A stretch of DNA of 64,000 bases from an uncultured archaeon. GTDB lineage: Archaea > Aenigmatarchaeota > Aenigmatarchaeia > QMZP01 > JAFGSV01. Numbering within the stretch: the first letter of the stretch is position 1; each line of letters opens with the position of its first letter. The translations under genes were made by a program, and so were the position numbers. The notes under the pieces were generated by a model. That model made no database searches. It was not told the DNA's origin and was given only the letters and a program-made list of their open reading frames with translations. Positions 3,362 to 34,407 of this stretch are shown one piece after another. The DNA lies in assembly GCA_964559215.1 (NCBI GenBank), contig CAZLFZ010000001.1:3985-67984 (forward strand), read 5' to 3'.

Positions 3362-3979
3362 ATGGTAAAGGAGTTCGGGGATCAGTTTGAGGAATTCGTG
3401 ATGTCATACTTCAAGAGAGTGAAAAAATGTAAAGTCGCTGTTAGGGATTATTCTTTTCATAAATCTCATAAAACAAAAGGGGGTGGAACAAGAAACAGTC
3501 CAACAGATTTGGATGTCGTGGCATTCGGAAAGAGCAAAATTTATGCAATTTCATGCCAAGAATTTATTCCATTCACGCCAAAAAAAGCACCTGAAAATTG
3601 TAAGAACATTGTTGATAATCTTAAGCAAGGAATTGAAAACCTTAAACAAAATCTTGGAAAGGGAAAAATTGAACCCGTTATAGCCTGTATTTCTATAAGC
3701 AAATATGGCTACCAAGAACTAATGAAACATACAAGAAGAATGTTTGGAAAAGAACTTGAAATCAAATTTCTTTTTGATATGGTTTCTGAATATGTCAATT
3801 TTTTAACTCATAAGGACTTCAAAAAGATGTCTGCTATCAGTTTTGGAACGCTCGATTGGTTTCTATGTAGAATTGTTGGGTGGTATGGTTTAAACTTCAC
3901 AAAAGAACTGGAAGATTTGAAACCAGAGGAAAGAAAAAGGGTATATACTATATTCAGGGAAAGACAACTCAAGGAATGA
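3362..3979 (+). CDS. Restriction-endonuclease-fold protein with Hjc (archaeal Holliday-junction resolvase)-like N-terminal domain and unknown C-terminal domain
   Basis: The N-terminal ~75 aa ('QFEEFV...KVAVRD...GGGTRNSPTDLDVVAFGKSKIYAISCQEF') align by eye to Hjc 'AERELI...GFAVVRSAGS..VDLVAGNGKKYLCIEVK'. The first catalytic Glu and Asp are conserved, but the terminal E-x-K reads S-C-Q. An extra domain of about 130 aa follows. Confidence 0.35.
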   Translation: MVKEFGDQFEEFVMSYFKRVKKCKVAVRDYSFHKSHKTKGGGTRNSPTDLDVVAFGKSKIYAISCQEFIPFTPKKAPENCKNIVDNLKQGIENLKQNLGKGKIEPVIACISISKYGYQELMKHTRRMFGKELEIKFLFDMVSEYVNFLTHKDFKKMSAISFGTLDWFLCRIVGWYGLNFTKELEDLKPEERKRVYTIFRERQLKE

Positions 3980-4022
3980 TTTGTAAACATCGGTTTTATT
4001 AGTCAGTGTTGAAACTATAACT

Positions 4023-4334
4023 ATGAAGCTCCAAAAATTGACGTATCTGTTATTCATAGTAAATTCAGCTTTAGATAGCGGAAAAGATATAGACATAAAA
4101 TTTGAAGAAGTTAGGAATCATGCCGAAAAGCAAAATTTCGTGGGTTATCTAAAAGTAAAGCTGGATAGAGACCTCAATCTCACAGCAGAAGAAACAGCAG
4201 AATTGAATGAAAAAATTGAGAGATTGTCTAATGCTGTCTATGATAGGGAGAGAAGAAAGTTTGGAGTAGAAAATAATGGCTTATGCTTGATTATTGCTTA
4301 CCTAACTGAGATAATACAGAATTATTTGGATTGA
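4023..4334 (+). CDS. Hypothetical small protein (103 aa) in AT-rich islet
   Basis: ORF only; no motif recognised. AT-rich codon usage matches the neighbouring islet genes. Confidence 0.2.
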   Translation: MKLQKLTYLLFIVNSALDSGKDIDIKFEEVRNHAEKQNFVGYLKVKLDRDLNLTAEETAELNEKIERLSNAVYDRERRKFGVENNGLCLIIAYLTEIIQNYLD

Positions 4335-4400
4335 CTTTAAGAGCAAAAATCATACTTTAGGAGCAGAATTCACTTTAAGAGCAAAGCCGTCCTGAGGTTA
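4330..4400. repeat. Three imperfect ~19-bp direct repeats (core 'ACTTTAAGAGCAAA') at the boundary of the AT-rich islet
   Basis: 'actttaagagcaaaaatcat' / 'actttaggagcagaattc' / 'actttaagagcaaagcc' read directly at nt 4334-4386. They lie just before composition switches to the higher-GC core genes. Confidence 0.5.
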
Positions 4401-4443
4401 AGCTTTTTAAAGTAGGGCTTTAATTTTAAGTTGATACGTAAAA

Positions 4444-5043
4444 GTGGGCGAAGTGGGAATAAGCTCGGTAAAGCGCGAAATAAGGATAGTAGGATGGGAC
4501 GATGCGCCCTTCAGCTTCAGGGACAAGAAAACCGCCCTCGTAGGAACCATATACAGGGGAGGTTCCTGGCTTGACGGGGTAATAACGAGCGATGTAAAAA
4601 TAGACGGTCTCGACTCGAGCGAGAAAATAATAGCGGCCGTTAACAGTTCACCCCACAAAAAACAGCTCAGGATAATAATGCTTGACGGCACAACGTTCGG
4701 GGGGTTCAACATAGTCGACATGGATAAGATAAACAATGAGACATCCTTGCCCGTGATAGCGGTTGTCAGGGAAAAACCGAACTTCGATTCGATTAAACTC
4801 GCACTGCAACGGTTCAAGGACTCAGCCAAAAGGTGGGAGCTGATCTTAAAGGCGGGGCCTGTTAATGGACTTGAGGTGAGGAACCCCAAGACAGGAAAGA
4901 TTAAAAAGATATGGTTCCAAAATAGGGGTATTGAATCTGACGCCGCGAGAGAAGTCATCAAGATTTCATCCACCCGATCATTCATTCCGGAACCCCTGAG
5001 GGTGGCGCATCTGATCGCACATGGTTTAGGAGGTTGTAAATGA
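4444..5043 (+). CDS. DUF99/UPF0215 family protein (conserved archaeal, RNase H-like fold, function unclear)
   Basis: 199-aa ORF with a GTG start. I recognise the sequence pattern ('IVGWDDAPF...IMLDGTTFGGFNIVD') as the UPF0215/DUF99 archaeal family. Confidence 0.5.
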   Translation: MGEVGISSVKREIRIVGWDDAPFSFRDKKTALVGTIYRGGSWLDGVITSDVKIDGLDSSEKIIAAVNSSPHKKQLRIIMLDGTTFGGFNIVDMDKINNETSLPVIAVVREKPNFDSIKLALQRFKDSAKRWELILKAGPVNGLEVRNPKTGKIKKIWFQNRGIESDAAREVIKISSTRSFIPEPLRVAHLIAHGLGGCK

Positions 5044-5528
5044 AAGGCGATGTGAAGGAAACGGTGCTGTACATTGTCATCGGGGTGTTGCTTGCCTGGG
5101 GGATAAACCAAGGCATGGCGTTCGCCCTGACCACGGATATGCCGGTTGTTGCCGTGGAATCAAACAGCATGGTGCCGATGTTTTACAAGGGTGATATCCT
5201 TGTGCTGCATGGGATGGAACCCGATGCGTTGCGTGTCGGGGACGTCATAGTCTATTCCGTGGCCGGCCGGGATGTTCCCATTGTTCACAGAATAAAAAGA
5301 ATCAACGCCGACGGCTCCTTCCAGACCAAGGGGGATGCCAACAGCGGGCAGCTGGATTTCGAGTATTATGTAGACCCGGAAAATGTTCACGGAAAGGTGT
5401 TCGTGATAATCCCTTACCTGGGGTGGGTGAAGATAGGCATAATGCAATACGTGTTGCCCAACATTTTATTCGTACTGACAGCGATCGTGGTTATCGCTGT
5501 CATATACTACGGCAGGAGGTTGATCTAA
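5040..5528 (+). CDS. Signal peptidase I, archaeal/eukaryotic Sec11 type (S26B)
   Basis: 162 aa with an N-terminal TM segment, the catalytic Ser box 'VESNSMVP', the 'GDIL' and 'HRI' boxes, and 'GDAN'. Its start overlaps the upstream stop. Confidence 0.7.
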   Translation: MKGDVKETVLYIVIGVLLAWGINQGMAFALTTDMPVVAVESNSMVPMFYKGDILVLHGMEPDALRVGDVIVYSVAGRDVPIVHRIKRINADGSFQTKGDANSGQLDFEYYVDPENVHGKVFVIIPYLGWVKIGIMQYVLPNILFVLTAIVVIAVIYYGRRLI

Positions 5529-5894: not shown

Positions 5895-7049
5895 ATGATA
5901 AGGGTTTTGGTCCTGGGGTCAAAGGAGTATCCCTTCGGCACTAACATGGGTGATGACCCCATACCGAGCGGGGGGATGGAAACTTATCTGAATGACTTAG
6001 CACCCGAATTGTCGAAATTGTGCAAGTTGCTGATAATCACGAGACGTTTCACTGGAACGGAAAAATGTCAAAAAATCGGCAAGAATATCTCCGTAAGAAG
6101 GGTCCCGTGGGTAAGGGGAAAGTGGCTCAGGAACCCGAGCTTTAACTTCTTTTCATGCTTATCTTCCATGAAAGTCATGAAAAATATTGACGTTATCTAT
6201 TCAAACGGCATCATATCTGGCCTTTTTGCTCTTTTGTTGGGCAGGATGTTCCGAAAGAATGTTGTCTACAGGCCTGCAGGCATAGGGTTCGTCCAGTACG
6301 GGTTCCCTCTTAAACAGTTACTCTTTGCCCTTGAAAGGCTGGTGTTCGCCAAATCCGATGCGGTCATTTTCCATTCACATGGCGAGAAAAGAAACGCGGA
6401 ATCGGTGTTCAAAATAAGATTCAGGGACGCAAGCGTGATCTTGACAGGGTTCCCGGTCGGGAAATTCAAGACGGGAAATAAAGGGCTCGGAAAAGAGTTC
6501 GGAATCGGAAACGAAACCGTGATAAGTGCCGTGTCGAGGTTCGTCCCTGTAAAAGGTCTCGAATATCTGCTTGAGGCGTGTTCGCAACTGGATTCCGATT
6601 TCAGGCTGCTGCTGGTTGGCTCAGGTCTTGAGGAAGGGAGGCTGAAAAAGCTGAGCAGCGATCTGGGCATCGCCAACAAGGTCATTTTTGCCGGTTTCAG
6701 GCATGATGTGCCTGACATTCTGGCCATAACCGACATTTTCGTTGTCACTTCTTTGTTCGAGGGCCTGCCGACATCCCTGCTGGAGGCTATGGCCGCTGGC
6801 TTGGCCTGCGTTGTCACCGATATAGGGCTGCCTGTCCAGCATATGAAAACGGGGCTCGTTATCAGGCCGAAAGACCCGTCCGCGTTGAAAAATGCGATGG
6901 AATCGCTGATAAAGGACAAGGGTATGAGAGAAAAACTGGGAGAGAATGCCAGGGAATTTGTGACCGAGAACTGCACCCAGAAAAAGGCCGCGCTCGGGCA
7001 TGTAAAGCTGTTCAGGAAAATTTTAAAGTGTGATTTGAAGGAGGATTGA
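5895..7049 (+). CDS. Glycosyltransferase family 4 (GT-B, retaining)
   Basis: 384 aa. C-terminal GT4 signature region 'FVVTSLFEGLPTSLLEAMAAGLACVVTDIG' (EX7E-like). Confidence 0.7.
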   Translation: MIRVLVLGSKEYPFGTNMGDDPIPSGGMETYLNDLAPELSKLCKLLIITRRFTGTEKCQKIGKNISVRRVPWVRGKWLRNPSFNFFSCLSSMKVMKNIDVIYSNGIISGLFALLLGRMFRKNVVYRPAGIGFVQYGFPLKQLLFALERLVFAKSDAVIFHSHGEKRNAESVFKIRFRDASVILTGFPVGKFKTGNKGLGKEFGIGNETVISAVSRFVPVKGLEYLLEACSQLDSDFRLLLVGSGLEEGRLKKLSSDLGIANKVIFAGFRHDVPDILAITDIFVVTSLFEGLPTSLLEAMAAGLACVVTDIGLPVQHMKTGLVIRPKDPSALKNAMESLIKDKGMREKLGENAREFVTENCTQKKAALGHVKLFRKILKCDLKED

Positions 7050-23984: not shown

Positions 23985-24127
23985 ACACATATTATTGCAC
24001 ACCTTTTTATATACTTGAGCCAGATTTCATTTGGTTTTGTATGCAGATTCCTTGTTTGAAGCCAAAAGATGTAAGAATAAGGGAAAAAGATAAAAAAACA
24101 CTTTATCTAAACTTTTGTAGTGAAACT

Positions 24128-25351
24128 ATGAAAGTCACACTTATCGGCCCCCCTAGCCCGTATTTGGATAACGATGCCGCGTGCCCGCCGTCCGGTCTCA
24201 TGTACTTAGCAGCAGCTTTAGAAAATATTGGCCATGAAGTGGAAATCCTAGACCTCAGCGGCGGATCAGACTGGAGGAGTAAAGCCCCAAGACTTGAGGC
24301 TGATCTTTTTGGGATAACATGCGTCACACCAAACTTCAACGTAGTCCGAGAGTTGTCCAATCTTCTCCCAGAAGATAGGCCGATAATAATCGGTGGCGTG
24401 CACCCAACACATTTGCCGGAAGATGTCCTTCAGAAGATTCGTTGCGACTCCGTCGTGAGAGGAGAAGGGGAAGTGATAATCAAAAAAGTGATTGAGGACT
24501 TGGAAAGGGGGAAATTGCAGAGGATTTATGAGGGTGGTTTAGTTCCGGTTGAAGATATCCCGAAGCCGGCAAGGCACCTTGTTGACCTCCATAAATACAG
24601 GCCCGGGGGCGAAAAGACAACCCCGGTCTACACTTCAAGAGGATGCCCGTTTAACTGCAATTTTTGCTCAAGGATCACCGGGAGGACCTTCAGGGCCATT
24701 CCCATTCCGCGAGTTTTAGAGGAGATAAAGGAAGTGATGTCACTGGGTTTCAAGCACGTGTATTTCGGTGATGATAACATTGTAATCCAACGCGAAAGGA
24801 TGAAGGAGCTGCTGAAAGCCATCAAGCCCTTGGGTATAGAGTTCAGGCTGAACCATGATGCAAGAACTATAGATGAGGAGATAATCGCTTTGGCCGCTGA
24901 TGCGGGCTGTGATGAGATAAGCTTTGGCATCGAGTCGGGAAGCCAGAGGATGCTCGACCTGATGAACAAATGCACGACTGTTGAGGAAAACAAAAAGGCG
25001 ATGCTGCTAACAAAAAAACACGGAATAAAATCAAAGGCTTACATCGTGGTGAACTTCCCGGGAGAGACCGAGGAGACGGTCAAGGAGACCATAAAGTTCA
25101 TATCTGAGGCAAGACCGGACAAGTGGCTGCTGTCATCCTTTGCCCCTCTGCCAGGCTCCAATACTTTCCACCACCCAGAGAAATACGGAATCACTTGGAT
25201 GAGTAAAAACTGGGAAGACTACTATCTTGCTGGAAAGGATGGGAAATTCAAGCCCTGCTTCAAGACCGACGAACTTTCCTTTGAAAGACAGATATACCTT
25301 CATAATCTTCTTATAGAGAGCCTAAGGGAACAGATAGGAAGACAGCATTAA
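24128..25351 (+). CDS. B12-binding radical SAM enzyme (second intact copy)
   Basis: N-terminal B12-binding domain ('MKVTLIGPP...') then 'SRGCPFNCNFCS' CxxxCxxC. ATG at 24128 chosen within the longer ORF. Confidence 0.7.
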   Translation: MKVTLIGPPSPYLDNDAACPPSGLMYLAAALENIGHEVEILDLSGGSDWRSKAPRLEADLFGITCVTPNFNVVRELSNLLPEDRPIIIGGVHPTHLPEDVLQKIRCDSVVRGEGEVIIKKVIEDLERGKLQRIYEGGLVPVEDIPKPARHLVDLHKYRPGGEKTTPVYTSRGCPFNCNFCSRITGRTFRAIPIPRVLEEIKEVMSLGFKHVYFGDDNIVIQRERMKELLKAIKPLGIEFRLNHDARTIDEEIIALAADAGCDEISFGIESGSQRMLDLMNKCTTVEENKKAMLLTKKHGIKSKAYIVVNFPGETEETVKETIKFISEARPDKWLLSSFAPLPGSNTFHHPEKYGITWMSKNWEDYYLAGKDGKFKPCFKTDELSFERQIYLHNLLIESLREQIGRQH

Positions 25352-26289
25352 GACTCAGGGTTTGCCTTGAGGTGCTGCGCCAGCTTGTTGATGCCTTCTC
25401 CCAGTTTTATAGTCGGCTTAAAGGAAAAGAGCCTTTCCATCTCATGCGGGGAGATTCGGAATGAGATGTATTCAGGAATGGCTTCATTTGTATGCTTTAT
25501 ATCGATATTACTGACCCCGAATATGCGGGCAACCTCCTTGACAAACTCGTTTATACTCAGGGGATTCCCTGTTCCAAAATCAACAGTCACGCTTTTCTCC
25601 AGCCTTGTTTCCAAGACCTTTCTGAGCCCTTCAACCGCATCGTCTATATACATGGAATCTATGTAGCTTTCCCCATCCCCGAACACGGTAAACTCCTTTT
25701 TCCCTTCCAGAACGAACGTCTCCACGAGCTTGGCATGCAACTTTCTGGAAGGCTGGAGAGGACCATACGCATCAAAGAACCTCAGGATTACATAGTTCCC
25801 TATGCTCTTGCGCCTTTCCTGGAAGAACCTGACGTAGCTCTCTGCAGTCAACCTGGATATGGCATAAGGCAGCGTCGGCGAAACCCGGGACCCGGGCGAA
25901 ACAAGGCCCTTCAGGCTGCCATAAACTGCACCCGTTGAAAGGTAGATGAATTTTTCACAGGAAAAGTTCTCCAGGAAATTGACCAGTTCCCTCACATTCG
26001 AGTCCAGGTCAAAGAGAGGATCGCTAATGGACTTCCCCGGGTTCCTATTCCCTGCCAGATAGAGCATTGCGTCAAACTTGCTGCCTATATCCTTTGCTGT
26101 CTTCTGCACGCACTGGAAATCAGAAAGGTCGCAGCTCACAGGGGTGACATTCTTGAGGCCCTTCTCTTTCAGGAAATCTGGGAAACCGTCGGAGCCGAAA
26201 AAGAGTGCAGATATCTCCCAGTCGGGCGGTGCTTTGAGTAAGAAATTCTTGCCCAAAAAATCCGAAGAACCTGTTACAAACAGTTTCAT
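25348..26289 (-). CDS. NAD-dependent epimerase/dehydratase family protein
   Basis: 'MKLFVTGSSDFLGKNF' glycine-rich NAD motif. SDR-like fold. Start moved to the ATG at 26289. Confidence 0.6.
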   Translation of the reverse strand: MKLFVTGSSDFLGKNFLLKAPPDWEISALFFGSDGFPDFLKEKGLKNVTPVSCDLSDFQCVQKTAKDIGSKFDAMLYLAGNRNPGKSISDPLFDLDSNVRELVNFLENFSCEKFIYLSTGAVYGSLKGLVSPGSRVSPTLPYAISRLTAESYVRFFQERRKSIGNYVILRFFDAYGPLQPSRKLHAKLVETFVLEGKKEFTVFGDGESYIDSMYIDDAVEGLRKVLETRLEKSVTVDFGTGNPLSINEFVKEVARIFGVSNIDIKHTNEAIPEYISFRISPHEMERLFSFKPTIKLGEGINKLAQHLKANPES

Positions 26290-26400
26290 AAGACTTCCCA
26301 GTTTTACCCAATTTGTTTTATTTACGCTATTTATATATTTAAGATATGTTGGAAGAATCTGGTTATTGGACACCGTAAACAGCTGACCCACATCTGGAAT

Positions 26401-26415
26401 TAATTATATAAATAC
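26401..26415 (+). promoter_or_regulatory. TATA-box-like element upstream of wbpB-like gene
   Basis: 'taattatataaatac' lies about 20 nt upstream of the ATG at 26434. The same motif occurs in the decayed duplicate at ~35757. Confidence 0.35.
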
Positions 26416-26433
26416 TTCGTTTGATAGTTGCTT

Positions 26434-27378
26434 ATGGTAGTTAAAATCGGTGTTATAGGATGCGGAAAATGGGGAAGGAACCACGCTAGGGTTTATTCTG
26501 AACTGGATTGTGAGCTGGTTGCTCTATCTGATCTGAACTCCGAAGTGAAGGAGCTAGCAAAAAAATTCGGGGCCAGGTTTTTTTTGGACTACAGGGAGAT
26601 GCTTCCCCTTGTGGATGCTGTATCAGTGGTAGTGTCGACAGACATGCATTATGATGTCGTGAAAGCCTGCCTGGAAGCAGGCAAGCACGTGCTGGCGGAG
26701 AAGCCCATAACGCTTAACTCGAAAAGGGCAAAGGAGTTCTTGGACATAGCCAAGGAGAAAGGGCTCATCCTCACCGTGGGTTACCTTTTCAGGTTCAATG
26801 CCTCTGTCCTGGAGCTGAAAAAACGCCTGCAAGATGTCGGAACCATACAGTACATAACAGCAAGGTATATGCACTCTTCCAAGCCTCCCAGGAAGGATTG
26901 CGGCGTGATATTCAACTTAGCCGCCCACCTGATAGACATTCTGACTTTCCTCCTCGACAAGAAGCCGCAGAAGGTGTACTGCAAGAAGGGCAACTTCCTC
27001 TCTGAGGAAAGGGAGGACATGGCAATCATAATCTTGAATTATGGAGGCTTCATAACAGAGCTCGAGGTGAGCTGGTTGCACCCCCTCAAGAAAAGGGACA
27101 TGTGGATAATTGGCTCAAAGCAGAAGGTTTACTCGGATTTCCTGGGGCAGATGATGACCGTCTATCCTTTAGAGGTTTCATATGACGGCATCAAGGCAGA
27201 CAAGCAGTTCAATGTGGAGATAAGGAAGAACGAGCCGCTTAAAGCGGAGTTGAAACAGTTCTGCAAGGACGTGGGAAACGGGAAGGCGATGAATGCCCAT
27301 GACGAACACGTCATAACCAAGATATGTGAACTCTGCCTGCAATCTGCTGAAAAAGAAAAGGAGTTGGACGTGGCATGA
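26434..27378 (+). CDS. Gfo/Idh/MocA-family oxidoreductase, WbpB-like UDP-GlcNAcA 3-dehydrogenase candidate
   Basis: 'VVKIGVIGCGKWGRNHA' N-terminal Rossmann, then 'EKP' box ('LAEKPITL'). Forms an operon with a hexapeptide acetyltransferase and a DegT aminotransferase. Confidence 0.65.
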   Translation: MVVKIGVIGCGKWGRNHARVYSELDCELVALSDLNSEVKELAKKFGARFFLDYREMLPLVDAVSVVVSTDMHYDVVKACLEAGKHVLAEKPITLNSKRAKEFLDIAKEKGLILTVGYLFRFNASVLELKKRLQDVGTIQYITARYMHSSKPPRKDCGVIFNLAAHLIDILTFLLDKKPQKVYCKKGNFLSEEREDMAIIILNYGGFITELEVSWLHPLKKRDMWIIGSKQKVYSDFLGQMMTVYPLEVSYDGIKADKQFNVEIRKNEPLKAELKQFCKDVGNGKAMNAHDEHVITKICELCLQSAEKEKELDVA

Positions 27379-28001
27379 ACCATAAAATCCATGAGAACGT
27401 GGAAATCGGAGAGGGCTCCACTGTCGGTGATTACGTCATAATAGGCGTGTCCCCGAAAGGGAAAAAAGACGGGGAAGCCAAGACTGTCATAGGAAAGGGG
27501 GCAAACATACGCTCACATTCTGTCATATACGCCGGCAACGTCATAGGTGACAACTTCCAGACAGGCCATGGGGTCATGGTAAGGGAATATAATAAGATAG
27601 GGAATGATGTTAGCATAGGCACAAACACCGTTGTCGAAAGGGACTCGAAGATAGACGATGGCGCCAAGTTGCATAGTAATGTGTTTGTGCCGGAGTATAC
27701 TTGGATAGGCAAGGGCGCATGGATAGGCCCGAACGTTGTCTTCACGAACGTCCCGCATCCCCTTTGCCCAAAGGCAAAGGAATGTATGAAGGGTGCTGTC
27801 GTGGGCGAATGCGCCAAGATAGGCGCGAATTCCACCATACTGCCGTTCGTCAAGATAGGCGACAATGCTCTGATAGGCGCCGGCTCTGTCGTCACAAAGG
27901 ATGTGCCTGCTAGCATGACCGCTTTTGGCAACCCGGCAACTGTCAAAAAGGATGTCTCGGAACTCAAGTGCTCCAAAGGCATGGTAGACAAGCCGTATTA
28001 G
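27375..28001 (+). CDS. Left-handed beta-helix (hexapeptide-repeat) acetyltransferase, WbpD-like
   Basis: Repeated [LIV]G-x4 hexapeptides ('IGEGSTVGDYVIIG', 'IGKGANIRSHSVIY', 'IGPNVVF...'). Start overlaps the upstream stop. Confidence 0.65.
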   Translation: MNHKIHENVEIGEGSTVGDYVIIGVSPKGKKDGEAKTVIGKGANIRSHSVIYAGNVIGDNFQTGHGVMVREYNKIGNDVSIGTNTVVERDSKIDDGAKLHSNVFVPEYTWIGKGAWIGPNVVFTNVPHPLCPKAKECMKGAVVGECAKIGANSTILPFVKIGDNALIGAGSVVTKDVPASMTAFGNPATVKKDVSELKCSKGMVDKPY

Positions 28002-28143
28002 GTCTGTTTATATGGGATTGATTTTGGGATGCGTTTAAATAAGAATTCCACCAGTCCTATTTAACCAATTACCTGTAACTGGTGGATGAGCACTAAAAGG
28101 GGAATTAATTTAAAGTGATTGTTGTTAATTATGCAGTGATATA

Positions 28144-29247
28144 ATGATACCCATAGCTTATCCGAAAGGTGCGGTAGACAAAGAGATGATAAAGGCAGTG
28201 GTAGATACGCTCAATTCAGGCAGGTATGTAATGGGCGGCAACTCCAAGGGGTTTGAAAGGGAATTTTCCTCCTTCTGCGGGACCAAGGCCGCAGTTTCCA
28301 CATCTTCAGGGACGACCGCACTCCACCTGACGCTTACTGCCATAGGGATCGGAGCAGGGGACGAGGTCATAACGACCCCCCACACCTTCATAGCCACGTC
28401 CAACTCCATCATACACACTGGTGCAAAGCCTGTCTTTGTTGACATAGACCCGGATACGCATAACATAGACGCCTCAAAGATAGAGGCTGCCATAACACCA
28501 AAGACAAAGGCAATAATCCCTGTCCACATATACGGCACACCCGCTGACATGGATGCCATAATGGAGATAGCCGAGCAACACGGCCTCAAGGTGGTTGAGG
28601 ACGCCTGCCAGGCAGCTGGGGCAGAATACAGGGGAAGGAAAACGGGCTCGATGGGGAACGCAGGCTGCTTCAGCTTCTTCCCGTCAAAGGTCATGACAGT
28701 CGGCGGGGAAGGTGGAATGGTGGTCACCAGCGATGAGGAGCTGGAGAGGAAAATGGTGGCCCTAAGGGACCAGGGAAGGATGCCGGGTGAGAAGTACAGG
28801 CACGATATGATAGGGTTCAACTACAGGATGGGCGAGATATCGGCGGCCATAGGGCTGCAGGAACTGAAGCACCTTCCCGAATGGTTAGAGCGCAGGAGGA
28901 AGGTAGCTAAGGAATATTCAAGGCTCCTCCAGGAGGTGGATAATGTTAAACCTCCCACAGAGAAGGAATGGGCAAAATCCTCCTACTATGTGTATACTAT
29001 TACGGTTCCATCTCAGAACAGGGAGAAGCTAATAGAGTGGCTAAGGGGAGCAGGGATACAGGCCGGCATATACTATCCTATGCCCCTTCATTTGCAGCCA
29101 GCCTACAGCGGCATGGGTTTCAGGAAGGGTATGTTCCCTGTAGCTGAGGATATAGTTACCCGGATTCTTGCTCTTCCCATGCACCAGTATCTTAAGGCTG
29201 AAGAAATAGAATTCGTGGCTAAAAAAGTGGCAGAATTCAAGCCATGA
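28144..29247 (+). CDS. DegT/DnrJ/EryC1/StrS-family PLP-dependent sugar aminotransferase, WbpE-like
   Basis: 367 aa. 'SFFPSKVMTVGGEGGMV' with the PLP-lysine context. Family-typical N-terminus 'GNSKGFEREFSSFCGTK'. Confidence 0.75.
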   Translation: MIPIAYPKGAVDKEMIKAVVDTLNSGRYVMGGNSKGFEREFSSFCGTKAAVSTSSGTTALHLTLTAIGIGAGDEVITTPHTFIATSNSIIHTGAKPVFVDIDPDTHNIDASKIEAAITPKTKAIIPVHIYGTPADMDAIMEIAEQHGLKVVEDACQAAGAEYRGRKTGSMGNAGCFSFFPSKVMTVGGEGGMVVTSDEELERKMVALRDQGRMPGEKYRHDMIGFNYRMGEISAAIGLQELKHLPEWLERRRKVAKEYSRLLQEVDNVKPPTEKEWAKSSYYVYTITVPSQNREKLIEWLRGAGIQAGIYYPMPLHLQPAYSGMGFRKGMFPVAEDIVTRILALPMHQYLKAEEIEFVAKKVAEFKP

Positions 29248-29299
29248 TATGGGCGGTTTTTATTGTCATGACCTGCAACGGCGAGAGATAGAATTACAA

Positions 29300-29350
29300 G
29301 GAATCGGGACGGTTCCAAAGCCGGCAAGGCACCTTGTTGATCTTCATAAA
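29300..29350 (+). pseudogene. Left piece of a fragmented B12-radical-SAM paralog
   Basis: 'ccaaagccggcaaggcaccttgttgatcttcataaatataggcc' is near-identical to nt ~24565-24605 of the intact gene (PKPARHLVDLHKYRP). Confidence 0.6.
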
Positions 29351-29367
29351 TATAGGCCATGAGGAGA

Positions 29368-29438
29368 TAAATCATATGCCGTTTTACGAAGTTCGCTGAA
29401 AGCGAATTTGGGAAAATCAAGCAAAGCGTAGATTTTCC
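29368..29438. other. Long perfect-stem hairpin (11-bp outer stem with nested inner hairpin)
   Basis: 'gccgttttacg ... cgtaaaacggc' encloses 'aagttcgctgaaagcgaattt' (inner stem ttcgc/gcgaa). Located at the left end of the AT-rich insertion. Confidence 0.5.
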
Positions 29439-29568
29439 GTAAAACGGCTGTTATGTCTCCGAGCGTAGCGAGGCGAGGAGCGGAACGAAGTGAGCACCGC
29501 AGAGTTCCATCCGAGATTTTTAATCTGAGGCCGACAAAATTATAAATGTAAAGCTCTAACACGTAGTT

Positions 29569-30495
29569 ATGAAATCGCTAATCATAAAGCCCAAATCTCC
29601 GTATAATATTAAGCTACATTTTGATAATTGTACACACAAAGAGCCCCAGCCATATCAGTACAAAGATGAGAAATGGTGGCAAGCTTTGCGGCTCAAGAAC
29701 GGTAAGCTGGTACCGGTAGAAGTGATATTAAATAAGAATGTTGATAAGCCACAACTGAATGTGAATATTTTTGTAGATACGTCAAAAGAAGAAAATGAGG
29801 AAATTGTTAGTCAAATCAGGCGTATCTTTAATACAGATTATGACTTAAAGTCGTTGTATAAATTCATGAATAAAGATCTGATACTAAAACGTGTAAAAAA
29901 TAATCATTACGGGCTGGTCCCTTCTGCTTCTCCAAGCATTTACGAAGCGATAATCGCAGTGATTATTCAACAGCAAATTTCTTTGAAAGTGGCACGGCAC
30001 ATGACTGCATTATTGATCAAGAAATTTGGCGACTGCGTGAAAATAGATAACCGAGAATTTTGGGCATTTCCCACGTCATCCGAATTAGCTAATAGAAAAA
30101 TTTCAGAATTAAGAAAATGTAAATTAAGCGGTCGAAAGGCCGAGTATATAAAAGATATTTCAAAAGCAGTCGCTTCTGGTAAATTTGATCCAGAATCGCT
30201 GAGGGAATGCTCACACCAAGAAATAATTGACCGCTTGACACAGTTTAGAGGGCTGGGACGATGGACATCAGAAATGGTAATTTTAACTTCAATAACTTTA
30301 GATAATATAAATCCTGCAGGAGATTTGGGTGCACGCAAAGCGATTTCTCATTTCTTCAACAAAGATAAATTAATGTCAGAGAATGAAGTTAGAGCACTAA
30401 CAGATAAATGGGGCAAATACAAAGGGGTAATTACATATTATTGTGGTGCTGAAGTTCTACATCAGTCGCCGTATTTTTATCGAGGACGGAATTAG
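29569..30495 (+). CDS. HhH-GPD superfamily DNA glycosylase, AlkA-like (3-methyladenine DNA glycosylase II-type)
   Basis: 'IYEAIIAVIIQQQISLKVA' matches AlkA 'FEALVRAILGQQVSVAAA'. 'GLGRWTSEMVILTSITLDNINPAGDLGARKA' is the HhH plus Gly/Pro loop plus catalytic Asp, compared with AlkA 'GIGRWTANYFAL...PDDYL'. TATA-like 'aaattataaatg' lies about 20 nt upstream. The segment is AT-rich. Confidence 0.55.
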   Translation: MKSLIIKPKSPYNIKLHFDNCTHKEPQPYQYKDEKWWQALRLKNGKLVPVEVILNKNVDKPQLNVNIFVDTSKEENEEIVSQIRRIFNTDYDLKSLYKFMNKDLILKRVKNNHYGLVPSASPSIYEAIIAVIIQQQISLKVARHMTALLIKKFGDCVKIDNREFWAFPTSSELANRKISELRKCKLSGRKAEYIKDISKAVASGKFDPESLRECSHQEIIDRLTQFRGLGRWTSEMVILTSITLDNINPAGDLGARKAISHFFNKDKLMSENEVRALTDKWGKYKGVITYYCGAEVLHQSPYFYRGRN

Positions 30496-30501
30496 ACATA
30501 A

Positions 30502-30645
30502 CAACCCTATCTACACTTCGGGGGTTGCCCGTTCAATTGCAGCTTCTCCCCAAGGATTACCAGTGGGGCTTTCATGGGGTTTCCGTTCCAAGGGCCCTGG
30601 AGGGTGTGGAAGAGGTCATGTAATTGGGCTTCAAGCGTATATTAT
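30502..30645 (+). pseudogene. Right piece of the fragmented B12-radical-SAM paralog
   Basis: Translates as 'TLSTLRGLPVQLQLLPKDYQW...' in one frame and 'GCPFNCSFSPRITSGAFMGFPFQGPWRVWKRS' in another. This parallels intact 'TPVYTSRGCPFNCNFCSRITGRTFRAIPIPRVLEEIKEV' with stops and a shift. The track ORF 30443-30649 is an out-of-frame reading of this remnant. Confidence 0.6.
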
Positions 30646-30729
30646 CTGAGCCATTGATTAGCATAATGACCATCAATGGATATCGGTGTTGATATAAGCA
30701 ATTTATATCAAGGTTGGTATATTTAAGAC

Positions 30730-32277
30730 ATGCCTGAAGAAGTCGGGAATGGCTATCTGAAAACGATAGTAAAGGGAGCAGGAATTGTTTTCATCGGCTT
30801 GTTTGTATCAAAGATCCTCAGCTATCTTTTTAGGATTTTCATAGCGCGATACTTTGGGCTTGGGGATTATGGGCTGTTCTCGCTCGGTCTGGCAGTTCTG
30901 AGCTTTTTCGCGACCTTTGCGATTTTGGGTCTGCAGACTGGCGTAATCAGATACACGGCACATTACAGGGCGAAAGGTGATAAGAAGAGGGTCAAAGGTG
31001 TAATAACATCCAGCATTAAGCTCGTTTTGCCCGCCTCGGTCATAATGTCATTTTTGATGTTGATTTCTTCTCCTTACCTAGCAATCAATGTTTTCAAGGA
31101 GCCTGAACTGGTAAATGTTTTGCTAATTCTTTCGCTCTCGATCCCGTTTTCAGCACTGTTCGCTGTTCTTGTGTCTGTTTTCACGGGTTTCAAGCAAATC
31201 AAATACAAGGTTTGTTCTGAAAGCTTTTTCATCAATCTCGCAAAATTGGTTTTCATAATCGCTTTCGGGGCTTGGGGATTCGGGGTTGTCGGAATAGCAT
31301 GGGCATGGACCATCGCTACCATATTGGCACTCATGCTGTCTGCTTACTTTCTGAAAAAGGTTTATCCGATCTTCCGAACCAAGGTTGTTTCTATTCCAAT
31401 GAAAAAAGAACTGCTTTCATATTCTTTGCCCTTGTTGTTCACCGCCTCTATGAGCTTTTTCGTCTTGTGGACAGATACGCTCATGCTCGGTTATTTCAAA
31501 AATGTAAGCGATGTGGGCATTTACAATGCCGCCATGCCGACAGCCCAGCTTTTAATCATGTTTCCAAATGCACTAGCAGCTTTATTCCTGCCCATAATAA
31601 CGGAACTCCATGCAAAGAATAAAATTGTTGAACTGAAGAAAGTCTACAAAACAGTAACCCGCTGGACATTTTATATAAATTTTCCGATGTTTTTATTGCT
31701 TGTTTTCTTCTCAAGGCAGGTTTTGAATCTTCTCTTTGGACCAGAGTACATTACTGGGTACATCCCCCTGATAATTCTAAGCATGGGTCTTATGTTTCGT
31801 AAAAGCGTTCAATCGGTTAGGATACTGGAAATGCTCAAAAAAACCAGAAACATACTATACATTGTTATTTTAACAACAGTCTTGAATGTGTCACTCAATT
31901 ACCTTTTGATACCTTTATATGGCATGAGAGGCGCAGCCATTGCGACCATGGTTACTTATGTTGCTGCATTTTTCCTGTATTTTTTCTTTTCCTACCGTTT
32001 CTCGAAAATGACGCCCCTTTCTCTTAACATGATGAAAGCAGTTGTAGCAGGAATAACTTCGATAGCAATTGTCCATTCAGCGGCGCGCCTGTTGTTTGCA
32101 TCATTCTCCATATACATTCTGGCTGGCCTTTTCCTAGCATTTCTTTTCCTGTATGGTTTCATACTTCTTCTGCTCAGAAGCTTTAACAAGGAAGACATAG
32201 AAATAATGAAAACTATAGAAAGGAAAAGCGGACTGAAAATAGAATTTCTAAGAAATGTTTTAAAGAGATTTATGTGA
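30730..32277 (+). CDS. MOP-superfamily polysaccharide/oligosaccharide flippase (Wzx/PST-like)
   Basis: 515 aa with about 14 TM helices. N-terminal 'KGAGIVFIGLFVSKILSYLFRIFIARYFG' is typical of polysaccharide biosynthesis protein family transporters. Confidence 0.65.
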   Translation: MPEEVGNGYLKTIVKGAGIVFIGLFVSKILSYLFRIFIARYFGLGDYGLFSLGLAVLSFFATFAILGLQTGVIRYTAHYRAKGDKKRVKGVITSSIKLVLPASVIMSFLMLISSPYLAINVFKEPELVNVLLILSLSIPFSALFAVLVSVFTGFKQIKYKVCSESFFINLAKLVFIIAFGAWGFGVVGIAWAWTIATILALMLSAYFLKKVYPIFRTKVVSIPMKKELLSYSLPLLFTASMSFFVLWTDTLMLGYFKNVSDVGIYNAAMPTAQLLIMFPNALAALFLPIITELHAKNKIVELKKVYKTVTRWTFYINFPMFLLLVFFSRQVLNLLFGPEYITGYIPLIILSMGLMFRKSVQSVRILEMLKKTRNILYIVILTTVLNVSLNYLLIPLYGMRGAAIATMVTYVAAFFLYFFFSYRFSKMTPLSLNMMKAVVAGITSIAIVHSAARLLFASFSIYILAGLFLAFLFLYGFILLLLRSFNKEDIEIMKTIERKSGLKIEFLRNVLKRFM

Positions 32278-32499
32278 TTGCTTCCTTGAGTATCTGGCGT
32301 TCGGTGTTGACAATATCAGAATCCCGCCGGAATTTAGCATTTTCAACCAGTTCTTCAGAACTAGCCTATAATTTTTAACATGCTCTATAATTTCAAGAGC
32401 TACTATTGCATCATGGACATCATCATGTAGAAAATCATATTCTTCAACAGCCTGAATATCTTGTCGTATAGTTTCATCTGGCAACGTCCCTTTCGTCAA
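32260..32499 (-). pseudogene. C-terminal fragment of a class I SAM methyltransferase (no motif I)
   Basis: 'DAIVALEIIEHVKNY...LKMLNSGGILILSTPN' is the post-motif II/III region only. The upstream ORF (32474-32770) lacks a GxGxG box. Confidence 0.4.
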
Positions 32500-32747
32500 T
32501 CTTCCTGTATTTATATTCCCTCAATTTCTTATCCATCTTCTTCGCCATGATGTAGCTTTTTTTAAGGTTGCGAAACATATCCCGATGCGATTCGCAAATC
32601 GTTCCTGCCGGATTGCGTTTTTTCATTTCGGCTAAAAACCATTCATCTGAATATTCATCGACTAAAATGGTTGAAAACGTTTTGAACCTGTTCAATGCGT
32701 TTTCCACGAAACGGCCTATCCATGTTCGAACCCTTACTTTATTCGTG

Positions 32748-33681
32748 TCATCCTTGGGTACATTCGACATATTTCACCTCTGATTTATAGGCATCGCATT
32801 TGCTGCAAAGCGGCAGACTTCTTTTCAGTATGCCTTTTCTTGCCGCCTTGAATTTTGTACTGTCCATTATCTCTTCCAGACTGTTCTCTAACAAATTACC
32901 AAGCACATACTCATGATAGAAGTCCTTGCAGCAAAGGATGAGGTCGCCATTCCATGCTATGACCACAATCTCGAAAAGCTGCAAGCACTTCGTGATTTTT
33001 TTATGAGGCTTACGCAAGACCTGTAATTTGGCAAGCCTTTCCCTCATGTCCCCATCAAACTGGCTGAATGAGCACCGACTTGAATCTAACACCGTCAATG
33101 CCGAGAGACCTGCCGAGCCTTAGAATCTCGTTTTTCTGGTGCTGGTTGTGCTTCATTACGAGAAATTGTATGATGATTCTTGGACGCTTTGAAATGCCAC
33201 GCTGCCTAACGATTCCCTCTATATTGGCAAGGACCTTATCAAAGTTTCCGCCGACCCTGTACTTTTCATAGGTTTTCGCATCGGCACCGTCGACTGAGAA
33301 CTCTATCTCGTCAAAATAACGGACGACATGCTTATAATCGCTTTCATTGAACAATGTTCCATTGGTCTCCATTTTGACCCTGATTCCCTTGTCTGAGCAT
33401 ATTTTCGCCATTTTGAATATGTCCTTGTTAAGCATGGGTTACCCATGCAAGAAGAGTCCCACTTCTTTTATATCACCGAGATTATCCAGCACTTTCATGA
33501 AATTGGTCAGCGACATGGAACCCTTCTCTTTGACATGCCAGCTTGGACACAACGGACATCTCGAATTGCACATATTGGTCGGCTCTATCTTCGCTATGGT
33601 CGGCTTTATTGACATATATAAAAACGGGAAGAAATTCCTCAATACTGACATCATAAGCTTGTACTTATTTTTTCCAACCAT
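32748..33681 (-). pseudogene. Radical SAM / SPASM-domain gene disrupted by an in-frame TAA (33439-33441) and a frameshift near 33055-33098
   Basis: Three consecutive ORFs: 'CNSRCPLCP' radical SAM box (33439-33681), the mid barrel 'METNGTLF...' (33055-33435, same frame as the first and separated only by TAA-CCC-ATG), and the SPASM-like C-terminus 'CCKDFYHEY...CSKCDAYK' (32748-33098, other frame). Confidence 0.55.
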
Positions 33682-33712
33682 CTACAATCTCCTCTATCGT
33701 TCTGCCTTCCCA

Positions 33713-34407
33713 TCATTCAAGGATGTCTTTTAATGTGCGGTTATTTTGGCTTTGTGTATTTACCCTCCACTTCTGCCACCTGACTATCGTGTTTATGCAA
33801 AAGGTACACTGGTAAGGACACCCTCTCCCAGAATGGTCGTGTATATGTCTCCCGAAGTCCTCGCCCCCAAGAACATAATCCGACACATACTCTTTCATTT
33901 TAAGTAGATGCCAGCTTGGTGGAGACATCTCATTCAATTCCATGTAAGGCTTGATTGGGTTTCTTTTTATCTCACCTTTTTCAGAGTAAACCAGCCCGCT
34001 GATATCAGATATCTTTTTTTACCTTCCATATGTTGCATAAACTCTAATGCACCCTTTTCAGCCTCATCTCTTATGACAAAATCAACAGACCGGTCCATTA
34101 CTGTCTGTTCGGGAAAGAGGGTAGGGTGTGTCCCGCCCCAGACAACTGGTACATCGGAGTCAATTTCCTTGACAGTGTCTGAAAGTTCAAGTGCGTATTT
34201 CAGCTGTGTCGTCATAACGGAAAACCCTATGACATCCGATTTTTTGATCAGGCTCTTCAACTTCTTCTTTTCATTTTCCACCTGATAATCTATCACATTC
34301 ACCTTGCACCCAGCTTTGTCAAGAACCGTGCCAAGATAAAGAACTGCCATGAACAACTGAGGCGGTGACTTGTCTTCTGCCTTCGGATTTACAATGGTAA
34401 AATTCAT
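33713..34407 (-). pseudogene. Truncated, frameshifted N-terminal portion of a third B12-binding radical SAM paralog
   Basis: 33967-34407 encodes a B12-binding domain ('VIGFSVMTTQ...VVWGGTHPTLFPE'). 33713-33943 in another frame encodes 'RGCPYQCTFCIN' CxxxCxxC. There is no C-terminal half, and it abuts the SPASM pseudogene. Confidence 0.5.

Follow-up and report, generated by a model that had tools for sequence, protein, structure and literature searches.

How does a gene for a DNA-repair glycosylase come to lie in the middle of a radical SAM coding sequence, inside an archaeal glycan locus? The question is raised by a window of 64,000 nucleotides (nt) from an uncultured archaeon (contig CAZLFZ010000001.1 of assembly GCA_964559215.1), in which two pieces of a B12-binding radical SAM gene flank an AlkA-type glycosylase gene (hereafter alkA). 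We find that a foreign segment of 1,144 nt (29359-30502) separates the two pieces, and that the promoter and alkA within it are enclosed by a pair of inverted arms shared with other copies of the gene (Table 1). On balance we lean towards the capture, by microhomology or illegitimate recombination, of a horizontally acquired, repeat-flanked alkA module in a decaying gene.

Two collinear pieces of one dead gene flank the insert

The window holds a single region similar to the remnant pieces, an intact B12-binding radical SAM gene that serves here as the reference paralog. The solid part of piece 1 matches paralog nt 520-563 at 40 of 44 positions (91%, blastn E 1e-12), and the preceding 29270-29314 retains weak similarity interrupted by a 6-codon gap; at the protein level, piece 1 corresponds to paralog residues 153-199 (tblastn, E 1.6e-8). 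Its four differences are, without exception, synonymous third-position transitions. Piece 2 matches paralog nt 577-639 at 48 of 63 positions over 30501-30563 (76%, blastn E 3e-4) and paralog residues 194-240 (tblastn, E 7e-5), with similarity weakening out to ~30645 (nt 721); aligned globally, 30501-30645 agrees with the paralog in 98 of 148 columns, three indels included. The two pieces agree with the paralog in strand and order, and only paralog nt 564-576 are unaccounted for between their ends. The collinearity proposed in a first-pass annotation of this DNA is thus borne out, and its estimate of about 15 missing nt becomes a measured 13 nt.

The remnant is a dead pseudogene fragment and not a member B12-radical-SAM gene, since an in-frame TGA (29359-29361) stands right behind piece 1, and piece 2 contains frameshifts and a stop. 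In fact, it keeps only ~190-270 of 1,311 nt and offers no intact open reading frame (ORF) with a B12-binding domain and CxxxCxxC motif; the Cys-motif region of piece 2 is frameshifted and reads RGLPVQLQLL.

Two accounts would dissolve the interruption altogether. In one, reads from a low-GC organism were misjoined into the contig, a chimera that a metagenome-assembled source and the sharp composition shift at alkA would suit. However, three further contigs (L001, L002 and L097), separately assembled from other samples or runs, are 100% identical over one or both junctions (Logan SRR9705735 and JGI 3300031337 over both, Logan SRR8557270 over the left only), so that four assemblies agree, and contigs with the adjacent DegT aminotransferase gene are as numerous as contigs with alkA (seven each). 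With junctions identical in separately assembled contigs, a chimera is very unlikely. In the other account, the radical SAM-like flanks arrived together with the glycosylase gene, or the two pieces stem from different genes that became adjacent by chance. The unequal divergence of the pieces from the paralog (91% for piece 1 versus 66% for piece 2, Fisher p 0.001) speaks for this, as does a TTGCC motif that a multiple alignment hinted to be common to piece 2 and the arm flanks of other contigs. Yet only the four synonymous sites separate piece 1 from the resident paralog, the piece ends fall just those 13 nt apart on it, and the GC content of the pieces resembles that of the neighbours and not that of the low-GC alkA; the flanks of three other alkA copies (L089, L092 and L093) show no significant radical SAM similarity at the DNA or protein level. 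This account is largely refuted already, and we regard it as very improbable.

The insert is foreign in composition and carries alkA

From left to right, the insert comprises a 98-nt hairpin, a GC-rich stretch, a promoter with B-recognition element (BRE) and TATA box, and the ORF of alkA. The GC content at third codon positions (GC3) of alkA is 0.33, against 0.53-0.64 in seven neighbouring genes and 0.46 in the flippase gene, and for this reason we class the insert, by its composition, as foreign DNA. It had been described as AT-rich, which fits the promoter and gene (~36% GC) but not 29300-29499 (~48% GC). The hairpin and TATA-like promoter reported in the gap are both present. The TATA box sits 21 nt before the ATG, leaving a very short leader or none, and the promoter region, which probably drives alkA, is conserved with L089 183-222 and L092 226-266.

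The only ORF of the insert with a family match is alkA. A 72-aa minus-strand ORF over the hairpin, tried as a marker for other copies, has no homolog, and neither a transposase nor an integrase is encoded between the insert ends, in agreement with the first-pass annotation, which leaves no autonomous insertion sequence (IS) or transposon there. Nor did a search for recombinase families over the ~45 large ORFs of the window return any. Rfam gave no match in the region at a permissive threshold nor in the whole window, and the window contains no tRNA. These results support the discrete insertion seen in that annotation: one dead gene is interrupted by a separate stretch of foreign DNA, on which a complete AlkA-type gene and its promoter lie.

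Conserved inverted arms enclose alkA in either orientation

The first-pass annotation had seen no terminal inverted repeats. Comparison with other copies of alkA overturns this: conserved inverted arms, one long and one short, flank the promoter and gene. The arms are imperfect inverted copies of each other, each reading GTTATGT.., AATTCCGTCC.CGAT, a spacer, and then AGGCCGAC; the inner AGGCCGAC forms the BRE on the promoter side and is present as a decayed copy beside the stop codon. A repeat search within the window returned the pair as I6 (29446-29458 / 30494-30506), which is not significant alone.

The most informative copy is L089, whose AlkA is 80% identical in amino acids and whose positions 183-1120 correspond to window 29528-30466, promoter included. 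Outside this segment the correspondence is inverted: window 29461-29519 matches L089 1191-1133 at 52 of 59 positions (88%, E 1.4e-15), and window 30475-30502 matches L089 178-151. Consequently, the long arm lies upstream of alkA in the window and downstream in L089, as it also does in L093, while the short arm lies downstream in the window and in L092 and upstream in L089 and L093. Sequence identity of the short arm is 89% to the downstream arm of L092 and 82% to the inverted upstream arm of L089. Compared with L089 or L092, the arms are therefore 82-89% identical, versus 62% at 4-fold degenerate sites of alkA (p 0.0008-0.03), which indicates that they are constrained and are more than hitch-hiking spacer. 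As the simplest account of the two arrangements, the TATA-plus-alkA segment may have been flipped by recombination between the arms in some lineages.

Arm-bearing contigs (L089/L090, L092 and L093) differ in context. The module lies in a glycan locus in the window, with a HepT toxin gene in L089, and by a tRNA-like 3′ end, recognised by eye, in L092. Recurrence elsewhere had been put forward as a way of checking the insertion, and the arm-flanked alkA does occur in other contexts without radical SAM fragments. In L092, positions 1-30 resemble by eye the T-arm and the 3′ acceptor strand of a tRNA gene and lie 240 nt ahead of the alkA promoter; the structure is truncated and was not called by ARAGORN. 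The L092 alkA itself carries an extra T (~330-345) that shifts the frame, and the gene is consequently called from an internal GTG.

The long arm alone contains a GC-rich insert in otherwise AT-rich DNA, variable in length between 45 and 85 nt (29459-29504 in the window, L089 1148-1215, L093 ~1035-1075). In L093 it holds two TTCG-loop hairpins, with no Rfam match. A conserved RNA structure in this GC-rich part was considered and is not convincing, with nine weak pairs from three sequences. We also considered the arms as old radical SAM fragments that would have allowed homologous integration, and rejected this on p values of 0.03-0.64 and the lack of any blast match.

The hairpin and the two junctions

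The hairpin contains a 49-nt loop with two small hairpins of its own and folds with a z-score of -4.2 as RNA and -5.75/-5.55 as single-stranded DNA on the two strands. We read it as a back-to-back junction of two arms, in which the outer end of the long arm meets a truncated copy of the outer half of an arm. It had been treated as a flanking mark of the glycosylase gene, which does not hold in general, since the structure arises from this junction and not from the gene. A comparable hairpin, with another stem sequence, occupies the equivalent place in L089: the long arm is opposed there, at its outer end, by a third and partial copy of an arm, the two forming an 11-bp perfect stem around a 70-nt loop, and the TATA box of the next gene comes after it. 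Next to the 11-bp stem, the box GCTGTTAT is the same in the window and in L089, although the stem sequence differs.

At the right junction, the short arm runs on past ACATAAC in L089, L092 and L093, whereas the window switches at 30502/30503 to radical SAM sequence from nt ~579 onward. The right end is therefore cut inside the arm, and the window shows no clean element terminus. The join coincides with a short match between AGACATAAC in the arm and AGACAAC in the target. The left end of the insert resembles the outer arm half and the right end is the inner half, the two overlapping at AGA.A.AAC. Immediately to the right of piece 1, 29359-29392 resembles paralog nt 564-597 in a tblastx/tblastn extension, and the 11-mer GAGGAGATAAA equals paralog nt 679-689. 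Shuffling gave p values of 0.015-0.4 for a target-site duplication or a similarity of the left junction to the target, and we claim neither; as the remnant is too decayed, a target duplication is neither shown nor excluded.

How the module may have entered the gene

We propose that the 1,144-bp segment was gained horizontally from a relative of low GC content, probably one within Thermoplasmata (both direction and donor being deduced from composition and relatives), and was captured inside a second, already dispensable copy of the B12-radical-SAM gene. A dead gene in a recombination-prone island would have been a harmless site on which to land. The module would consist of promoter and ORF between two imperfect inverted arms, one of them with a GC-rich insert abutting the hairpin, and recombination between the arms would flip the central segment in some lineages. 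Joining would have occurred by microhomology or illegitimate recombination at the AGACATAAC/AGACAAC match with loss of ~13 nt of target, possibly from a circularised fragment opened within one arm at microhomology with the target. The joining mechanism is deduced from two features, the absence of a recombinase from the module and the cut of its right end in an arm at a short match, which favour illegitimate joining over self-catalysed transposition.

Several observations weigh against this proposal. There are only four independent arm-bearing contigs, mostly of 1-2 kb, and with so few and such short contigs the limits of the element cannot be fixed. For the left 88 nt of the insert (29359-29446), no sequence homolog was found elsewhere. 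Both insert ends lie in arm-like sequence at roughly equivalent positions, beyond what random breakage would lead one to expect, which hints at a site-directed step. The uneven decay of the two remnant pieces is not explained by any single simple history unless gene conversion is invoked; a short patch of conversion by the paralog, which lies 4.7 kb upstream, would account for piece 1 if it ended where the insert creates heterology. Finally, neither an empty site nor an uninterrupted remnant was found among flippase relatives (at most 64% identical, with different neighbours) or by exact look-up of the DegT gene; with no empty site in any relative, the order of gene death and insertion is not shown.

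Another possibility is an integron-like cassette. Here, a folded site resembling attC (the hairpin with boxes ACATAAC ... GTTATGT) would have allowed a circular alkA cassette to be inserted by a tyrosine recombinase acting in trans at a secondary site in the radical SAM gene, splitting the site into halves at 29363-29388 and 30494-30502. When the right end (…GGAATTAGACATAAC) is joined to the left end (GGAGATAAATCATAT GCCGTTTTACG…), one complete arm is restored, which runs box, spacer, 11-bp stem, loop, 11-bp stem, spacer, box and has unequal spacers. The layout in L089 is alike and its boxes are conserved (AGATAAC-AGC-GTATATCTGAT-70 nt-ATCAGATATAC-ACAAAC-GTTAAAC, followed by the TATA box of the next gene). 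Moreover, the junction falls inside a box, the target has AGACAAC, and the arms are under constraint. The consensus of attC boxes R′′/R′ is RYYYAAC / GTTRRRY; ACATAAC and GTTATGT each show one mismatch to it and the L089 box GTTAAAC fits. Taken together, the boxes match the consensus imperfectly, and spacers of 1-6 nt are atypical. Archaea hold integrons as well as attC clusters without an integrase (PMC9668308), a precedent for such a site, but the term “Thermoplasmat” is absent from the main text of that survey of archaeal integrons (PMC9668308). Further against a cassette, the 64-kb window has no integrase; there is no array but one site per locus, and a pattern and stem search of the 832 kb of fetched loci recovered the full site from L089/L090 alone; cassette arrays have direct repeats, whereas alkA is enclosed by inverted arms; and the left junction shows no significant similarity to the target. 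We consider an integron-like cassette unlikely. We likewise give little weight to a broader variant, in which the alkA module would represent an undescribed class of small archaeal cassettes, each with a promoter-bearing gene and inverted arms, whose attC-like outer parts would serve excision as a circle and insertion at short matches by a recombinase in trans and whose inner arms would let the cargo flip.

The arms could instead be the terminal inverted repeats (TIRs) of a non-autonomous transposon, similar to a miniature inverted-repeat transposable element (MITE) with cargo, mobilised by a transposase in trans and damaged in the window copy. Conserved inverted arms around a single cargo gene in at least three contexts and an insert without a transposase are what such an element would leave, and other alkA loci are also bracketed by repeats (71-nt repeats in L003, 30-nt direct repeats in L011, palindromes by an IS200-type Y1 gene in L006). 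However, the repeats in L003, L006 and L011 are unrelated to the window arms and may therefore be host-specific intergenic repeats. No target-site duplication is demonstrable, the candidates not being significant; the right junction cuts an arm and hence is not at an element terminus; and the arm family was found only beside alkA, never as a multi-copy family, in the 64-kb window and the 832 kb of loci. A TIR element thus appears decidedly unlikely, and illegitimate capture of the alkA module is the reading we retain.

The glycosylase and the pseudogene are ordinary in themselves. What is new is the combination of conserved inverted arms and a hairpin around alkA in either orientation, with no recombinase. 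The locus provides a concrete, datable case of uncultivated sediment archaea acquiring a single housekeeping-type repair gene. Should the arms prove to be recombination sites, they would suggest that Thermoplasmata exchange genes by a cassette-like system, whose enzyme is not known; otherwise, the locus shows neatly how a dead gene in a variable glycan island can take up foreign DNA.

The inserted gene encodes a typical AlkA

The ORF matches the Pfam family HhH-GPD (PF00730) over residues 129-281 (1.2e-13, 51.8 bits against a gathering cut-off of 26.2), and its best solved relative is the AlkA of A. fulgidus, AfAlkA (2JHN, E 2e-34, 30% identity). D252, in PAGDLGARKA, aligns with the catalytic Asp240 of AfAlkA and is unchanged in 19 homologs. 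The hairpin motif GLGRWTSEM corresponds to the monofunctional AlkA-type hairpin (GxGxWT, with the Trp and without the Lys nucleophile of OGG1 and Nth), and G228, G230, R231 and W232 are invariant in the alignment of the same homologs. In human OGG1, the catalytic Lys is K249. The active-site Asp and Trp that were to be expected of an AlkA are thus in place. The pocket Trp has its counterpart in W218 of E. coli AlkA, for which the roles of the catalytic Asp (D238) and of aromatic residues have been described (PMC4437013). An AlphaFold2 model (pLDDT 86, pTM 0.86) matches solved structures over the full length in Foldseek, with TM-scores of 0.77-0.83 for AfAlkA 2JHJ/2JHN (0.79/0.83 for 2JHJ) and 0.70-0.80 for E. 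coli AlkA.

The annotated complete gene of 308 aa is confirmed as an HhH-GPD glycosylase, but its native protein has 298 aa. Position 30463-30465 reads CAG where the relatives L089, L092, L006 and L011 carry a TAG stop, and 18 aligned homologs end at or within two residues of position 298, the exception being P0002, which diverges three residues earlier. We therefore interpret the ten additional residues, encoded by 30466-30495, as a read-through tail; it is modelled as disordered (pLDDT <50).

Ratios of nonsynonymous to synonymous substitution (dN/dS) of 0.11-0.13, at dS of 0.8-1.0 versus L089 and L093, indicate that the gene has been kept under purifying selection. By its sequence, this appears to be an ordinary archaeal AlkA, most likely active and expressed from its own promoter. 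Its expected role is to start base-excision repair by flipping out and removing alkylated bases, 3-methyladenine and related lesions among them; AfAlkA is also able to excise 1-methyladenine and 3-methylcytosine (PMC4437013). The enzyme is unrelated to the glycan pathway.

Relatives of alkA and their repeats

Genes related to alkA at 68-82% nt identity have GC3 values of 0.25-0.36, with L004 and L010 (about 70%) as exceptions, and the named relatives are metagenome-assembled genomes (MAGs) of Thermoplasmata/Thermoplasmatales. In one Thermoplasmatales lineage, alkA sits stably between the Pcc1 and CitF genes with host-like GC3 (0.54-0.59), and in ANME-1 it occupies another conserved position; in these lineages it is therefore ordinary chromosomal cargo. 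The subfamily is patchy over Altiarchaeales, ANME-1 and others. A scan of species-representative genomes with the single protein returned no close relative, the exact gene being absent from that collection. Viral contigs yielded no match to the hairpin pattern, the arm pattern or the alkA alignment, and plasmid and phage collections returned only relatives of at most 32% identity.

Flanking direct repeats accompany alkA in L003, L011, L013, L089 and L006, unrelated to one another in sequence and absent at the syntenic “native” loci. In L003, alkA (81% aa identity) lies between 71-nt direct repeats (279-348 and 1284-1354) that are 93% identical; the right one overlaps the end of the ORF and replaces its last residues (AEV|KIKGTRTF). 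In L011, the repeats are 30 nt long and 93% identical (2584-2613 and 3695-3724), and alkA has genes for an AbiEi-like antitoxin and a C39-like peptidase as its neighbours. L013 has direct repeats of 14-17 nt (~4891-4907 and 5940-5956). In L006, whose alkA belongs to the same archaeal clade, 24-nt palindromes resembling repetitive extragenic palindromic (REP) sequences (TGTTCTAGCGCA..TGCGCG) surround the gene at 3660-3760, 4720-4815 and 5190-5295, with at least six copies in 1.6 kb; they extend into an ORF for an IS200-type Y1 transposase, an arrangement that resembles systems of REPs and REP-associated tyrosine transposases (REP/RAYT). The Thermoplasmatota MAG contig L019 (715-1161) holds only the C-terminal half of alkA (residues 150-298, 81% identical), either a truncated copy or a frameshifted gene.

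The glycan locus around the remnant

The remnant and alkA lie between DegT aminotransferase and flippase genes in a glycan locus of ~45 kb, which contains glycosyltransferases, sugar-nucleotide enzymes and several B12- and SPASM-type radical SAM genes. The locus is bordered by housekeeping genes at one end and by a restriction-modification gene at the other: at this edge, a 992-aa ORF (54-3032) carries Eco57I-type and N6-methylase domains, as in type IIG-like restriction-modification enzymes, and the ORFs that come after it (3362-5528) have no family match. Just past the flippase gene, the minus strand of 32260-34407 is a run of gene wrecks, whose parts are listed in Table 1.

Related loci differ in gene content. 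In L008 (533-1549, counterpart of window 25348-30729), the flippase gene directly follows the epimerase gene, and the block of oxidoreductase, acetyltransferase and DegT aminotransferase genes (window 26428-29247) is absent along with the remnant and alkA; this block is thus itself an insertion or has been lost in L008. In L095 (4816-9804), a 5-kb block of ~15 small ORFs, including ParA-like and MazE/AbrB-like ones, precedes a 59%-identical flippase gene and may be an integrated element where the window has remnant and alkA. The wrecks nearby and the differing gene content of relatives make the remnant one of several casualties in a recombination-prone island.

Table 1. Features of the window referred to in the text
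Feature	Position	Strand	Remark
Intact B12-binding radical SAM gene	24041-25351	+	Pfam B12-binding + Radical_SAM; reference paralog
Radical SAM remnant, piece 1	29270-29358	+	solid part 29315-29358 = paralog nt 520-563
98-nt hairpin	29363-29460		outer stem GGAGATA/TGTCTCC; 11-bp perfect stem GCCGTTTTACG (29378-88) / CGTAAAACGGC (29438-48)
Long inverted-repeat arm	29447-29527	+	GCTGTTATGTCT, GC-rich 45-nt insert (29459-29504), TTCCATCCGAGAT, spacer
Archaeal-type promoter (putative)	29528-29568	+	BRE-like AGGCCGACAAAA, TATA TTATAAAT (29540-29547)
AlkA-type 3-methyladenine DNA glycosylase gene	29569-30495	+	308-aa ORF; family-homologous part ends 30462 (298 aa)
Short inverted-repeat arm	30466-30502	-	TCGCCGTATTTTT ATCGAGGACGGAATT AGACATAAC; cut at outer side
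Radical SAM remnant, piece 2	30501-30645	+	paralog nt 577-721; frameshifts + stop
C-terminal methyltransferase fragment	32260-32499	-	
Frameshift-split SPASM-type radical SAM gene	32748-33681	-	
CxxxCxxC fragment	33713-33943	-	
B12-binding N-terminal fragment	33967-34407	-	

Comparison with known systems

The glycosylase shares with AfAlkA (2JHN/2JHJ) and E. coli AlkA the HhH-GPD domain, the catalytic Asp (D252, equivalent to D240 and D238, respectively), the G-L/I-G-R-W-T hairpin motif, the pocket Trp, the lack of a catalytic Lys and a three-domain fold of ~295 aa that includes the N-terminal beta-sheet domain. It differs from AfAlkA in being only 30% identical and in the unstructured 10-aa C-terminal tail that results from the lost stop. 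The remnant, a decayed paralog fragment of a neighbouring gene in a mosaic locus, resembles the wrecked genes of variable archaeal and bacterial surface polysaccharide loci; unlike the usual pseudogenes there, one 44-nt stretch of it is far less decayed than the rest.

With MITE-like and cargo-bearing TIR elements, the module has in common its small size, inverted arms, lack of an internal transposase and occurrence in several contexts, and it is set apart from them by a full gene with promoter, undefined termini, and the lack of a demonstrable target-site duplication and of a multi-copy family. In comparison with IS200/IS605-type elements, the insert has a hairpin at just one of its ends, and the window lacks a Y1 gene; the L006 alkA does lie beside a Y1_Tnp ORF, with REP-like palindromes unrelated to the arms. 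Similarly to invertible DNA segments, TATA-plus-alkA lies opposite with respect to distinguishable arms in different genomes. No invertase gene is found nearby, however, and the inversion is seen between genomes, not within a population. Because the promoter flips along with alkA, there would also be no switch of expression, unlike in invertible segments.

From integron cassettes, the module differs in having its own promoter and inverted repeats, no array and no IntI, and in boxes that meet the consensus only in part. It shares with them, archaeal ones included, a single gene of ~1 kb beside an imperfect palindromic site and the lack of a recombinase in the unit. The likeness extends to the attC site itself, in the short conserved outer boxes, the variable self-complementary inner stems, the variable loop and a junction that falls inside a box.

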